Source: Escherichia phage SonjaBuckley_Bas74
Direction: 5' to 3' (one strand)
Sequence record: PQ850627.1
Length of the DNA stretch: 43,096 nucleotides
Below are positions 14,217-41,054 of this stretch, piece after piece. Numbering within the stretch: the stretch's first letter is position 1; every line of letters begins with the position of its first letter. The translations under genes were made by a program, and so were the position numbers. The notes beneath the pieces are model-generated. The model made no database searches. It saw only the letters and a list, made by a program, of their open reading frames with translations, and was not told the origin of the DNA.

Positions 14217-14581
14217 ACGCGCTGTACAGGTTCGCCACCTACGAGTTCGTCGATAAGCATAAAATCAGAGAGTTTGATTCTATAGCTGACGGACACGAAC
14301 AGGCGCTTATCGCGATGGGTGTAATCGATAAGAAAAAACGTGCAGCGCGACGGGGTGGGCCAGAATGCCCGCCCCTTTTTATATCCACCTTTGAGACGTA
14401 TTGCGACATTAAGTTTACGCGACACGTGCGCGAGGACGCTGTAGTATTGTTTGCAAGAGAATCCGTTACGTGGCAAGACCTGAAAGCCTATCTCGATGTT
14501 ACGCAAAAACAGCTTAGCCTGTTCGAGATAGACATTATCATGGGCTTAGAAGCAATCTTTGAAGGTAGAAATCATGGCTGA
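14186..14581 (+). CDS. tail assembly chaperone -1 frameshift extension (gpGT-like, putative)
   Basis: -1 frame open from 14186 to 14581, overlapping the last 10 codons of the chaperone; GGAAAAG immediately before the TAG stop; ends just inside tape measure start. Confidence 0.4.
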   Translation, partial: RRAQSITGKVDALYRFATYEFVDKHKIREFDSIADGHEQALIAMGVIDKKKRAARRGGPECPPLFISTFETYCDIKFTRHVREDAVVLFARESVTWQDLKAYLDVTQKQLSLFEIDIIMGLEAIFEGRNHG

Positions 14582-36418: not shown

Positions 36419-36448
36419 TTGAAAGTTCTTGACACATGTTTGTATAAT
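36419..36448 (+). promoter_or_regulatory. promoter TTGAAA-N18-TATAAT driving a non-coding transcript
   Basis: Consensus -10 TATAAT at 36443-36448; divergent from the minus promoter at 36353-36381. Confidence 0.45.
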
Positions 36449-36455
36449 GGTTTTG

Positions 36456-36675
36456 GGACTTGTATATATTACGGAGTTGACGAACCCTCCCCGAGGGATT
36501 CGTCAACCCCTCCCAGACAGCTGAGATGCTTGCCTTGTGGTTTAAGGATAAGTGTATCTAAATCTCATTTAAAGAAGTAACCCGCTGAAATATCTACTGT
36601 TTCTTAATGTGCCGTAGATTCGCAACCGTAAAAATGTAACGATTATTGGGCAGGCTTAGGGCCTGCCCTTTAGTT
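36456..36675 (+). ncRNA. candidate small non-coding RNA (about 220 nt)
   Basis: Promoter upstream, strong 5' hairpin at 36476-36507, intrinsic terminator at 36648-36675, no ORF with SD (only an 11-codon ATG frame). Confidence 0.3.
36648..36675 (+). terminator. intrinsic terminator closing the candidate sRNA
   Basis: GGGCAGGC-TTAGG-GCCTGCCC followed by TTTAGTT. Confidence 0.6.
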
Positions 36676-38239: not shown

Positions 38240-38368
38240 ATGTATAAGTATCTGACGGTAGAAAAACTGGAACAGATTTATGCGGAGTTGCGAGTTTGCT
38301 GCGTATGCAGCGGCAACTACAAACTTGTTTACGGAGAACTGGAGGTAGACGATGCTCCTGGAATGTAA
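38240..38368 (+). CDS. hypothetical small protein (42 aa)
   Basis: ATG with GAGAGGAGAG leader downstream of TTGCAC-N17-TACTAT promoter; CCVCSG cysteine cluster. Confidence 0.35.
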   Translation: MYKYLTVEKLEQIYAELRVCCVCSGNYKLVYGELEVDDAPGM

Positions 38369-38570
38369 ATCCCATGATCGCTATTGGGTGCTCACTAAAA
38401 ATGACTTGTACCACCTCAAAGAAGACGGCGACGAGAGCCGCTGCTACATAATAGACGACAATGGCACTGAACTTGATGTCTATTACACCGGGTATGGTCG
38501 GTGGGCGTTATCAGCGGACGATGAATTTGTGTTTGAAGAATATAACGGGGAGGAGCCAGAAGATGAGTAA
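38352..38570 (+). CDS. hypothetical acidic protein (72 aa)
   Basis: ATG with GGAGGT SD; overlaps end of previous small ORF. Confidence 0.5.
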   Translation: MLLECKSHDRYWVLTKNDLYHLKEDGDESRCYIIDDNGTELDVYYTGYGRWALSADDEFVFEEYNGEEPEDE

Positions 38571-38982
38571 CAAAAACGAAGTATTCGAGTACCTGATTGA
38601 CCAGCTACGGCAGCAGGTAAATAACAACCAGTGCGAAGACCTGGCGCATGAGGTGCAGTCACTTAAGAATCAGTTACGCGATGCGTCTGCACAGATTAAG
38701 GAGTTGCATCTGGCGCTGGTTACAGCTACCGGTGATGTGGAGGCGTACAAACTTATCCGCAAAGGTGGGTACGTTTCCGCAGGCCAGCGCTACGTGGTTG
38801 GCGAACATGCGCCCGGGCCAACGGTAAATTGTCGGCGCACCCAGACGCCTGTACCGCCGGAGCAATCTGGTTGCCGTAAAGAAGATGCCCAGGAAGGGCC
38901 CTACCGTTTCTATTATGTAGTGATAGATGGCTCCGCGCCGTTCGGTACGAAAGTATGTAAAACGTGCGGGGGATACTTCTGA
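38563..38982 (+). CDS. hypothetical protein with coiled-coil segment and C-terminal CxxC (139 aa)
   Basis: ATG at 38563 with GGGGAGGAG SD, overlapping upstream stop; ORF-track start 38461 lies inside the preceding gene and lacks an SD. Confidence 0.5.
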   Translation: MSNKNEVFEYLIDQLRQQVNNNQCEDLAHEVQSLKNQLRDASAQIKELHLALVTATGDVEAYKLIRKGGYVSAGQRYVVGEHAPGPTVNCRRTQTPVPPEQSGCRKEDAQEGPYRFYYVVIDGSAPFGTKVCKTCGGYF

Positions 38983-39185
38983 TGACCAGCATCTTATTTA
39001 TCTGGGTATTGTACGCAGGCCAGATGCAACTAGCGGCATCAGAAACGTTTTACTCGATGGAGGCGTGCCAGTCAGCGGCACGCGCCGCAGAGAACGCGCA
39101 CTTCCTGTTTCAGGGCGACAAGCCCAACGATTCAGAGGTACGCGCTATCTGCTCACCTAAGAGACTTGGTAAACAGGAGAAATAA
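38982..39185 (+). CDS. small secreted/membrane-anchored protein (putative signal peptide)
   Basis: ATG overlapping upstream TGA; N-terminus MTSILFIWVLYAGQMQLAAS is signal-peptide-like. Confidence 0.4.
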   Translation: MTSILFIWVLYAGQMQLAASETFYSMEACQSAARAAENAHFLFQGDKPNDSEVRAICSPKRLGKQEK

Positions 39186-39186
39186 C

Positions 39187-39390
39187 ATGGTACAGAGATA
39201 TTCTAAGTATGGGTCCGACAACCATTTCATTGACCGCCACGGGAAGTGGGTTAAGTTTGAGGACTACCAGAATCTTGACCTAAAGCTGTTGGAAGTTGAA
39301 GCCGAGTTACAGAAATACAAGGACCAGTTCCCGGATTACGTCGAGTGCGCGAACTGTGGGTCAGTTACACATGTGGGAGGGGTGGAGTAA
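39187..39390 (+). CDS. hypothetical protein (67 aa)
   Basis: ATG with CAGGAGA SD; CANCG near C-terminus. Confidence 0.45.
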   Translation: MVQRYSKYGSDNHFIDRHGKWVKFEDYQNLDLKLLEVEAELQKYKDQFPDYVECANCGSVTHVGGVE

Positions 39391-39683
39391 TGTCGTTAGC
39401 AACTGACATCCTGAAACGAAGCGGCCTTGCGCCGCTGTCACCGAGAGCGAAGACACGTATACACAAGCGTCGCCGTAACGTGCTGTACCCTGAGATTCAG
39501 GCCAGACGCAAAGTTGTCCGCGCCTGTGGATTCCAGAACGGGAAGGCCGTGAATCTGGGTGAGTTCAAAACACAGGAACGCGCAGCTATCGCTAATCGGT
39601 TATTTAATTACTGGAAATCGCTGGGGTATGAAGATATTCCGACGAAACCGCAGAGACGACAATACATCTGGCGTCATAAATAA
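39390..39683 (+). CDS. AP2-like DNA-binding domain protein (putative)
   Basis: ATG with GGGAGGGGTGGAG SD; GFQNGKAVNLGEFKTQERAAIANRLFNYW resembles the AP2 domain pattern common in phage HNH-associated proteins. Confidence 0.4.
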   Translation: MSLATDILKRSGLAPLSPRAKTRIHKRRRNVLYPEIQARRKVVRACGFQNGKAVNLGEFKTQERAAIANRLFNYWKSLGYEDIPTKPQRRQYIWRHK

Positions 39684-39758
39684 ACCGTTATTAGGATAAT
39701 TCCTACCCGTGGTATCCTCCAGTTACTGCATACTTAATACGCACCTGGAGGATTCATC

Positions 39759-40067
39759 TTGGATAAATTTACTGAAACAGTGACAGGCTGGCTTCTGGCA
39801 GCCGCACTAGCTGGTGGGGTAATCGGACTACGACAACATAAGTCCGCTATTTCCGGCCCTATCGACGGATTCTGCTTTATTGCAACTGGCTTCACTTGCG
39901 CCGTATTTGGCGCGCCTCTCGCCGCTCAATGGTTCGGTATTACCGGAGAGCGCGAGATAGCTGGCCTCGGATTCATCATCGCAATTCTCTGGATGCCCAT
40001 CTATTCCCGTCTCTCCGGTATCGTCGCCGGAGAATACATCGCACGTCGAGGAGGCACAGATGAATGA
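39759..40067 (+). CDS. holin (three predicted TMDs)
   Basis: Apparent TTG start 6 nt after GGAGGA SD; three hydrophobic helices and charged C-terminus; directly upstream of endolysin cassette. Confidence 0.55.
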   Translation: MDKFTETVTGWLLAAALAGGVIGLRQHKSAISGPIDGFCFIATGFTCAVFGAPLAAQWFGITGEREIAGLGFIIAILWMPIYSRLSGIVAGEYIARRGGTDE

Positions 40068-40332
40068 ATTATTCTGGTTCGGCGGTATGCTGGCAATCGG
40101 AGGCACATCGCTGTTTAATGTATATCACCCCAGCGCGGATGACGGATTATTTGGCCGTGTGCTATATATCCTGACCGCTATTGTCTGCGCCGCAGGATGT
40201 ATCCACCTGTTACAGGGCAGCATGTCTCCGACGCTGCCTGAGACATTAATCACATTAGTTGCGCTGCGCCAGATTCGTCAGGCGTGGCTGTCATACGGAG
40301 GACATAAGCGTGTCTCGAAATATTTCAGATAA
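40060..40332 (+). CDS. membrane protein, second holin/antiholin-like component (putative)
   Basis: 90 aa with two hydrophobic helices; overlaps holin stop; between holin and endolysin. Confidence 0.45.
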   Translation: MNELFWFGGMLAIGGTSLFNVYHPSADDGLFGRVLYILTAIVCAAGCIHLLQGSMSPTLPETLITLVALRQIRQAWLSYGGHKRVSKYFR

Positions 40333-40422
40333 TGGACTTACCGCAGATAAGCTGCGCGAGGTTTTACACTACGACCCCGATACCGGAGTTTTCGCGAACC
40401 ATAAATTACGGGAAGGTGCTTT

Positions 40423-40908
40423 ATGAGAAACATTAGCAACAATGGCATCAAATTCACCGCCGCGTTCGAGGGATTCCGCGGAACTGCGTATCGTGCTACG
40501 CCAAATGAGAAGTACCTGACTATTGGGTACGGTCATTATGGGCCAGACGTAACGCCAGGCAAGACCATCACCCCGGGACAAGGCCTCCTGTTACTGAATC
40601 GTGATATGGCTAAGGCTGTAGCTGCGGTTGACGCAGCAGCACACCATTCATTGACACAGGCACAGTTCGATGCAGTGTGCGACCTGGTATACAACGCAGG
40701 TGCTGGTGTGATTGCTGCTACTACCGGCACGGGTAAGGCACTGCGTTCTGGTGATATTGCAACGCTGCGGGCTAAGCTGACACTGTTCATCAACCAGAAC
40801 GGCAGACCGTTACTTGGTCTGCGCCGCCGTACTGCCGGTCGTCTGGCGCTGTTCGACGGTAAACCGTGGCAAGAGGCAGAGGCTATCGGGCGCGCGGTGA
40901 AAGGTTGA
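40423..40908 (+). CDS. endolysin, T4-type lysozyme (GH24-like)
   Basis: FEGFRGTAY...TIGYGH and QFDAVCDLVYNAG match the catalytic region pattern of phage lysozymes; followed by strong intrinsic terminator. Confidence 0.75.
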   Translation: MRNISNNGIKFTAAFEGFRGTAYRATPNEKYLTIGYGHYGPDVTPGKTITPGQGLLLLNRDMAKAVAAVDAAAHHSLTQAQFDAVCDLVYNAGAGVIAATTGTGKALRSGDIATLRAKLTLFINQNGRPLLGLRRRTAGRLALFDGKPWQEAEAIGRAVKG

Positions 40909-40974
40909 CACCTGAGACTAATCCGACGATACTTAAATCACCTCCTGTTCCATACCTCTGCTCTCCAGTTTTAT

Positions 40975-41025: not shown

Positions 41026-41054
41026 TTGACTATTACCTACGACCCTATTATATT
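41026..41054 (+). promoter_or_regulatory. promoter TTGACT-N17-TATATA after endolysin terminator
   Basis: TTGACTATTACCTACGACCCTATTATATA followed by leader CAACGAGAACGGAG and ATG at 41088. Confidence 0.45.

Follow-up and report, generated by a model that had tools for sequence, protein, structure and literature searches.

In at least seven lineages of enterobacterial siphophages that encode the same holin family, the promoter of the lysis genes may be nested within a hairpin that acts as a terminator or masks the Shine-Dalgarno (SD) sequence, so that holin would be made only from transcripts of this promoter, while RNA coming from earlier genes would be terminated or silenced. In Kagunavirus the terminator would have decayed, leaving an origin-selective translational gate that, together with a UUG start codon, would set the rate of the lysis clock. 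This general reading is advanced tentatively, as one whose probability we place just short of one half. That the hairpin forms only on upstream read-through RNA, and that the holin's own mRNA starts inside the hairpin with a freer SD, we consider an evenly balanced proposition.

Genomic context of the lysis cassette

The window, by which we mean the whole analysed stretch of 43,096 nt from Escherichia phage SonjaBuckley_Bas74 (PQ850627.1), is the genome of a Kagunavirus-like siphophage. Of the 204 phage records that match the 1.2 kb surrounding the hairpin, the best is Escherichia phage Bas73 at 95%. Structural genes occupy the + strand up to ~23.9 kb and replication genes the - strand up to ~35.7 kb; a series of small genes then follows on the + strand and runs into the lysis cassette, which, across the ends of the window, is followed by the packaging and structural genes of that strand. 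The upstream genes at 38352-39683 are co-directional with the holin gene, and a promoter/terminator scan detected no terminator-like site from 37931 to the 75-nt block that precedes it. The features considered here are as follows:

39684..39758, + strand: intergenic regulatory block of 75 nt upstream of the holin gene (from conservation)
39691..39696, + strand: putative weak -35 element, TTAGGA here and TTAAGA in roughly half of the relatives (part of the best-scoring site in the 120 nt upstream)
39710..39718, + strand: putative extended -10 element TGgTATCCT, with TG at 39710-11 and the hexamer at 39713-18 (overlaps the 5' arm by 5 nt)
39714..39722, + strand: 5' arm ATCCTCCAG, the anti-SD (read directly; fold)
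39723..39744, + strand: A/U/C-rich loop of 22 nt (leader 5' end if transcription starts at ~39725)
39725, + strand: predicted transcription start, 7 nt after the -10 element and 3 nt past the 5' arm (from the -10 position)
39745..39753, + strand: 3' arm CTGGAGGAT with the SD GGAGGA at 39747-39752 (read directly)
39754..39761, + strand: spacer TCATC and TTG (from comparison with the U-tracts of relatives)
39759..40067, + strand: holin gene, PHROG 2359, 102 aa, TTG start (ORF and profile match)
40060..40332, + strand: second holin-like gene, PHROG 2508; overlaps the 3' end of the holin gene (profile match)
40423..40908, + strand: endolysin, Phage_lysozyme PF00959 (Pfam/profile match)

The product of 39759..40067 is assigned as a holin by its full-length profile match to PHROG 2359 (E = 9e-30; residues 1-96 correspond to profile positions 4-98 of 110), hole formation being predicted. 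Pfam contains no family for either holin-like protein or for the two upstream ORFs. The second holin-like gene and the endolysin gene are bridged by a 34-aa ORF (40332-40436), which is a CDS in the Bas73 annotation. Near-consensus sigma-70-like sites were found directly after the endolysin gene (TTGACA-17-GATACT at 40905-40933 and TTGACT-17-TATATT at 41026-41054) and in the small-gene region (TTGAAA-18-TATAAT at 36419-36448); these sites possibly indicate additional transcription units. Elsewhere in the genome, the longest imperfect inverted repeats, with 15 and 14 nt per arm, are located at 36473-36510 and 14483-14536.

Translation start of the holin gene

TTG at 39759 is the first possible start of the holin ORF, because an in-frame TAA occupies 39735-39737, and the absence of an in-frame ATG until late in the gene, as originally claimed, was confirmed: the next ATG is codon 79 (39993). 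The original prediction had left a choice between TTG at 39759 and GTG at 39780, and comparison with homologues favors the former. The TTG is conserved in all 45 loci of the Kagunavirus/Jerseyvirus lineage examined, and it aligns with the ATG-GAT/GAC (Met-Asp) of the holins of Dhillonvirus, eiAU and RF1, giving the N-terminus M-D-K, as well as with the ATG of the KW1E and Wc4-1 holins (Met-His and Met-Asn, respectively); in PHROG 2359 it corresponds to position 4. A TTG start is also found in the L051, P0038 and Scapp lineages, and a GTG start in P0037. Since the TTG aligns with the ATG of homologues and GTG 39780 has no SD, we take TTG 39759 to be the real holin start; the GTG, which lies in a segment deleted in Dhillonvirus, is unlikely as an alternative. 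The same GTG, at codon 8, is the sole second start in this gene, and the lambda-type dual-start motif is thus absent. That the weak start codon serves as a throttle on holin synthesis is reasonable.

Beyond the start codon itself, the first ~26 nt of the gene (39759-39784) are near-invariant among 43 relatives, including synonymous sites, and a small hairpin, UUACUG-AAA-CAGUGA, is predicted at 39767-39781. The start of this gene is misplaced in some database records. The eiAU holin is annotated 18 codons short (position 922 of its locus, L050, versus 868), and the ATG at L050:868 gives the M-D N-terminus of the family; the holin of Salmonella phage TU03 is annotated from an internal ATG and not from the TTG (L063, 378 versus 414). 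In several records, the holin gene is called hypothetical or is left unannotated.

A hairpin that occludes the Shine-Dalgarno sequence

The hairpin described in the original prediction is present as claimed: ATCCTCCAG (39714-39722) and CTGGAGGAT (39745-39753) are complementary over nine perfect Watson-Crick pairs, five of them G-C, and enclose a loop of 22 nt. The SD lies within the 3' arm and is separated from the TTG (39759-39761) by a 6-nt spacer (39753-39758). A 9-bp hairpin is by itself not exceptional, because 11 perfect 9-bp stems with loops of 3-30 nt were found in the window and about five are expected (5.0 +/- 2.8 in dinucleotide shuffles). The local fold of 56 nt has a free energy of -17.3 kcal/mol (z = -3.4), and none of 200 shuffles was as stable. 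When all SD-motif matches that precede a start codon and an ORF of 50 codons or more (86 matches, representing ~84 distinct starts) were ranked by accessibility, the holin SD was the most occluded of the genome. Its probability of being unpaired is ~1e-4; the second most occluded site has 0.03, and the median is 0.44. A near-complete block of the SD, in line with the sequestration first proposed, is predicted for any RNA carrying both arms: the probability of an unpaired SD is 0.001 in read-through RNA versus 0.22-0.45 in RNA starting at 39722-39725, where the truncated leader is still predicted to be partly paired.

Several other roles or interactions were dismissed. The freed SD could pair with CUUCUGG within the gene, but this was disregarded, as most relatives have CTC at that place. 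An RNA thermometer and an RNase III site were discounted on general grounds, the stem being too stable for the former and too short for the latter. Translational coupling was rejected because 31 nt separate the stop codon of the upstream ORF from the 5' arm (15 nt in phages carrying an HslV-like gene), a distance that is probably too great for a terminating ribosome to open the stem. A search of 39000-40500 against Rfam at E <= 1 returned no match.

Conservation and covariation of the hairpin

The 75-nt block is nearly invariant in 120 phage records and 41 IMG/VR loci, and it is the same whether a 97-aa ORF or an inserted HslV-like peptidase gene lies upstream. The latter gene, of the HslV family, is located directly upstream of the block, at the 39684 junction, in Bas73 and many relatives (L001, 1881-2321) and is absent from the window; in the phages that carry it, the block supplies its stop codon, the TAA within AGGATAATTCC. 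Among 43 distinct relatives, nucleotide diversity was 0.018 for the 40-nt hairpin and 0.054 for the block, compared with 0.06 for holin codon positions 1 and 2 and 0.35 for position 3, so that the hairpin is ~20 times less variable than the third codon positions. In the same set, variable sites comprised none of nine in the 3' arm, one of nine in the 5' arm and eight of 22 in the loop, those of the loop all being rare variants. The hairpin element is under strong purifying selection.

Within the lineage, arm changes are confined to the 5' arm (A8->G in L040 and PK1; C7->T together with A8->G in L051) and keep G.U pairs. Compensatory double changes were found at four pairs in Dhillonvirus and at one in P0038/L064 (T-A->C-G, pair 5). 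Over all relatives, the stem contains four compensatory pairs and two pairs of the G.U type, with 98% of the cells paired versus 33-55% in controls with slid partners; as MAFFT misaligned the Dhillonvirus hairpin, these counts were obtained with arms anchored by hand on a shared CCAG/CTGG core and with a dummy loop. The pattern supports selection for a base-paired RNA structure. The loops are unrelated between lineages both in sequence and in length (6-22 nt overall; 6-15 nt in L051, P0038 and Dhillonvirus). Within Kagunavirus the loop is conserved, though it is replaced in these three lineages; the Scapp loop has ACTTAA(A)TA in common with the window loop (39723-39744). Neither fold-back inhibition, as proposed below, nor its rivals explain the degree to which the loop and the initial 26 nt of the gene are conserved in Kagunavirus.

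Terminator character in related phages

A U-rich tract and then the start codon come directly after the hairpin in L051, P0038, Dhillonvirus, five KW1E-like phages, eiAU and P0034, and the only SD-like G-run in these phages lies in the 3' arm. The hairpins of these sister lineages range from -12 to -22 kcal/mol and have terminator-like loops of 6-10 nt; their U-tracts include TTTATTTTG, TTATTTTG and TTTTTTATG, as well as TTTTTT and T8. By these features they are canonical intrinsic terminators, and the stem in the window is, on sequence comparison, homologous to them. The window itself departs from the terminator pattern in a loop of 22 nt (versus 3-8) and in the tail TCATCTTG, with T at four of eight positions; residues 39754-39761 (TCATC and TTG) appear to be a degenerate remnant of the U-tract of the relatives. 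The promoter/terminator scan called neither kind of element at the block, and the published annotation of fBC-Eco01 contains no terminator and no predicted promoter at the hairpin. In most lineages, a terminator is followed by ATG and the SD-like run is in the 3' arm, and RNA containing the whole hairpin would neither continue into the holin gene nor allow its translation; therefore, the holin mRNA must start inside the hairpin.

The layout is different in Scapp and P0037, where a separate canonical terminator precedes the SD hairpin and the loops are large (18-19 and 19-21 nt, respectively). A distant holin homologue, P0050, is encoded on an Enterobacter prophage-like contig (L065, 680-800), where a terminator, GGCCGC-TTTAT-GCGGCC TTTTCC, lies 25 nt before a free SD and ATG, with no promoter-like site upstream. 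This arrangement is a different one, possibly based on antitermination.

A promoter-like site on the 5' arm

The best sigma-70-like site and the best SD-proximal hairpin were sought separately in the 120 nt upstream of the holin gene of each lineage. In the window, the putative -35 element TTAGGA has a 3/6 match to the consensus, with TT invariant and position 4 polymorphic (G/A) in 43 sequences. The TG and TATCCT of the extended -10 are invariant in these sequences, where the common polymorphisms fall at the "n" of TGn (G/C), in the spacer and at -35 position 4. TGnTAnnnT has this position with respect to the hairpin also in L051, P0038/L064, Dhillonvirus, eiAU and P0034. The window site scores 7.6 bits, a value reached by 22% of random 120-nt segments of the genome; because this is not above background, the case for a promoter in the window is one of homology and of position/geometry.

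The geometry recurs across lineages. In all 14 hairpin-bearing sequences, which represent six groups, the -10 element ends at -3 to +4 nt relative to where the 5' arm begins, and +1 is predicted at -3 to +3 nt relative to where this arm ends; under a uniform null, the coincidence of the -10 element with the 5' arm in six groups has a probability of ~4e-7. P0038/L064, a seventh group that was fetched afterwards and is thus out-of-sample, gave +1 and -4 for these two distances, with the start inside its 13-nt 5' arm. The distant homologues P0038, P0039 and P0041 were not found by scanning viral contigs, nor was P0038 in metagenome contigs, and the P0038 locus was reached through its encoding contig instead; P0040 was uninformative for the upstream comparison, as its contig begins 30 nt before the gene. 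The KW1E group conserves TTGACC/TTGATG, a spacer length of 17-18 nt and TACTAT/TAACAT, while spacer and stem sequences change; its sites score 10.5-13.5 bits, 12.3-13.5 in four of the five phages, and random segments reach 12.3 bits with p <= 0.007. Lineages with a poor -35 element have a TGn extended -10, whereas those with a good -35 do not. In real promoters, a poor -35 is compensated by a TGn extended -10.

Where the upstream gene is divergent (RF1 and P0026), no SD hairpin is found; in Wc4-1, the upstream gene is co-directional, yet the SD hairpin is likewise absent. Two other -10-like hexamers occur in the block: GATAAT (39695-39700), which would place both arms in the mRNA, and CATACT (39729-39734). 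GATAAT is the only -10 candidate further upstream; L051 and P0038 share TGnTAnnnT with the window but not GATAAT. A repeated phage-specific promoter was also considered and rejected: the block motifs have no second copy in the window and only weak matches elsewhere in it, with three mismatches and in unrelated contexts (13420 and 42577). A search of the literature yielded no work on this leader, nor any mapped transcription starts or transcriptomes for Kagunavirus, Jerseyvirus or Dhillonvirus. Comparative evidence strongly supports a promoter that initiates between the arms in the KW1E, P0034, Dhillonvirus and P0038 lineages. For the window, we infer that the promoter-like site is used and that the 5' end of the mRNA lies near 39725.

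Proposed mechanism and alternative explanations

We propose that the hairpin would be the remnant of an intrinsic terminator with the promoter of the lysis cassette built into it. RNA polymerase coming from the upstream co-directional genes would transcribe both arms, and the read-through RNA would fold, pairing the anti-SD arm ATCCUCCAG with the SD and preventing holin translation; in the sister lineages such RNA would also be terminated at the hairpin. The weak promoter of the cassette itself would consist of TTAGGA and TATCCT with a 16-nt spacer between them that has TG at its end (-15/-14). The 5' arm would double as part of the -10/discriminator region, transcription would start at ~39725, just past this arm, and the SD would be far more accessible, since the holin's own mRNA would contain only the 3' arm. 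Holin output would then be set by the weak promoter and the TTG, independently of the strength of upstream transcription. We infer both the existence of read-through RNA and the effect of this arrangement on lysis timing. The separate terminator in Scapp and P0037 counts against this mechanism, as it would make the insulating role of the hairpin partly redundant.

The hairpin was originally read as a brake on lysis timing. Of that reading, selection on the hairpin, blockage of the SD and a plausible contribution of the weak start codon are upheld, while the location of the hairpin in the holin's own mRNA is called into question by the overlap of the -10 element with the 5' arm and by the homology to terminators. 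We regard such a brake as unlikely, though still a serious competitor. It would require that the holin mRNA hold both arms, either by starting upstream of 39714 or by existing only as long read-through RNA; the SD would be sequestered in the functional mRNA because both arms are present, and rare breathing of the stem, together with the TTG, would slow holin synthesis and delay lysis. The single-stranded loop of 22 nt would perhaps assist the breathing by serving as a standby site for the 30S subunit. A stable, conserved and covarying hairpin with extreme SD occlusion fits this explanation, as does a window that has no convincing promoter; the loss of the U-tract and the gain of a large A/U/C-rich loop, which also occurred in the other non-ATG lineages (Scapp and P0037), suit a standby site, and the loop is conserved within Kagunavirus. 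SD-masking stem-loops of lambda S (bioRxiv 10.1101/2025.05.14.654169) and IS200 tnpA (PMC4513863) provide precedents. However, a brake within the mRNA leaves unexplained why, in seven lineages, a -10-like element coincides exactly with the 5' arm, frequently accompanied by TG or a consensus -35, and why the hairpin is absent from lineages with a divergent upstream gene. A terminator that abuts the ATG, as in the sister lineages, is incompatible with a place in translated mRNA, and the GATAAT that could supply a longer transcript is the element not kept in L051 and P0038. If this explanation is nevertheless right, the leader would be a further case of SD masking that tunes a holin, comparable to lambda S.

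It is improbable that the hairpin is primarily a leaky terminator or attenuator between the upstream genes and the lysis and late genes, read through by Q-like antitermination and with a secondary overlap of the SD. Homologous hairpins in L051, P0038, Dhillonvirus, KW1E and eiAU do have U-tracts and look canonical, the lysis cassette is positioned ahead of packaging and structural genes on the same strand as in lambda, and the P0050 prophage holin is preceded by a plain terminator. In the window, however, the long loop and T-poor tail are those of a stem that neither the scan nor the fBC-Eco01 annotation calls a terminator, and the hairpin would still form after antitermination and block the SD; in KW1E-type phages, antitermination would be unnecessary because near-consensus promoters are embedded in the hairpin. 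An explanation at the level of DNA, in which the inverted repeat is an operator with two half-sites for a phage or host regulator, overlaps the promoter and has no role as RNA structure, is very improbable. The repeat does straddle the putative -10/+1 region within a highly conserved block, where a second small inverted repeat, AGGA-N4-TCCT (39693-39704), is also found. The arm changes are, however, compatible with G.U pairing on the sense RNA only. Pairing is preserved among lineages that have entirely different arm sequences and loop lengths (6-22 nt), most lineages have a U-tract after the stem, and the arms have no other copy in the genome.

Comparison with known regulatory systems

The nested device, as proposed, has counterparts among known regulatory systems. 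Fold-back inhibition, by which the transposase genes of IS10 and IS50 are shielded against promoters outside the element (Davis, Simons & Kleckner 1985, cited in PMC13181058), is the logic that would be applied to the lysis clock. In these elements, the distal arm covers the ribosome-binding site, the element's own promoter starts between the arms, only outside transcripts fold and are untranslatable (PMC13181058), and a dose-sensitive, potentially harmful product is involved, as in the present case. In contrast to the IS elements, the gene here is a phage holin, transcription entering from upstream would come from the phage itself, the hairpin is in evolutionary terms a terminator and remains one in sister phages, the putative -10 element overlaps the 5' arm, and the device is known from sequence alone.

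In lambda S, a stem-loop at nt -21 to -7 controls ribosome access to the SD of Met1 (bioRxiv 10.1101/2025.05.14.654169). Both systems place a holin SD in a stem-loop just upstream of the start, and in both, translation efficiency would set the lysis time. The lambda structure, however, apportions two AUG starts, for antiholin and holin, within one mRNA; here, the dual-start motif is lacking, the start is UUG, the stem is longer, the loop has 22 nt, the holin family is unrelated, and the hairpin probably lies outside the main mRNA. The left end of IS200 combines a terminator directed against impinging transcription with an SD-sequestering stem-loop in the 5' UTR of tnpA (PMC4513863). There too, a terminator and SD sequestration silence a toxic or dose-sensitive gene, and Scapp and P0037 have the same layout of two elements; the IS200 stem-loop, however, is part of the gene's own transcript, and IS200 employs antisense RNA and Hfq, neither of which is indicated here.

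The lysis region of lambda offers a further comparison. In the lambda pR'-tR' arrangement, a promoter and a terminator lie directly upstream of the holin-endolysin genes that head the late genes of the same strand, and tR', located ~190 nt downstream of the start, is overcome by Q. Unlike in lambda, no antiterminator would be needed here, because the promoter would be inside the terminator-like hairpin.

Implications for lysis timing

For the annotation of these genomes, the TTG start is to be regarded as real, and several database records truncate or miss the holin gene. Lysis time is a central trait of phage fitness and depends on the rate of holin accumulation. If the nested-promoter reading is true, fold-back inhibition would here be described for the first time for a lysis gene of a phage. 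A device of ~45 nt, in which promoter, terminator, anti-SD and SD are superimposed, would uncouple the holin dose from upstream transcription, and a natural and portable module combining an insulator with a weak start would become available for phage engineering. The fold-back model, if right, would also explain how these phages can carry the lysis cassette right after co-directional genes without premature lysis.
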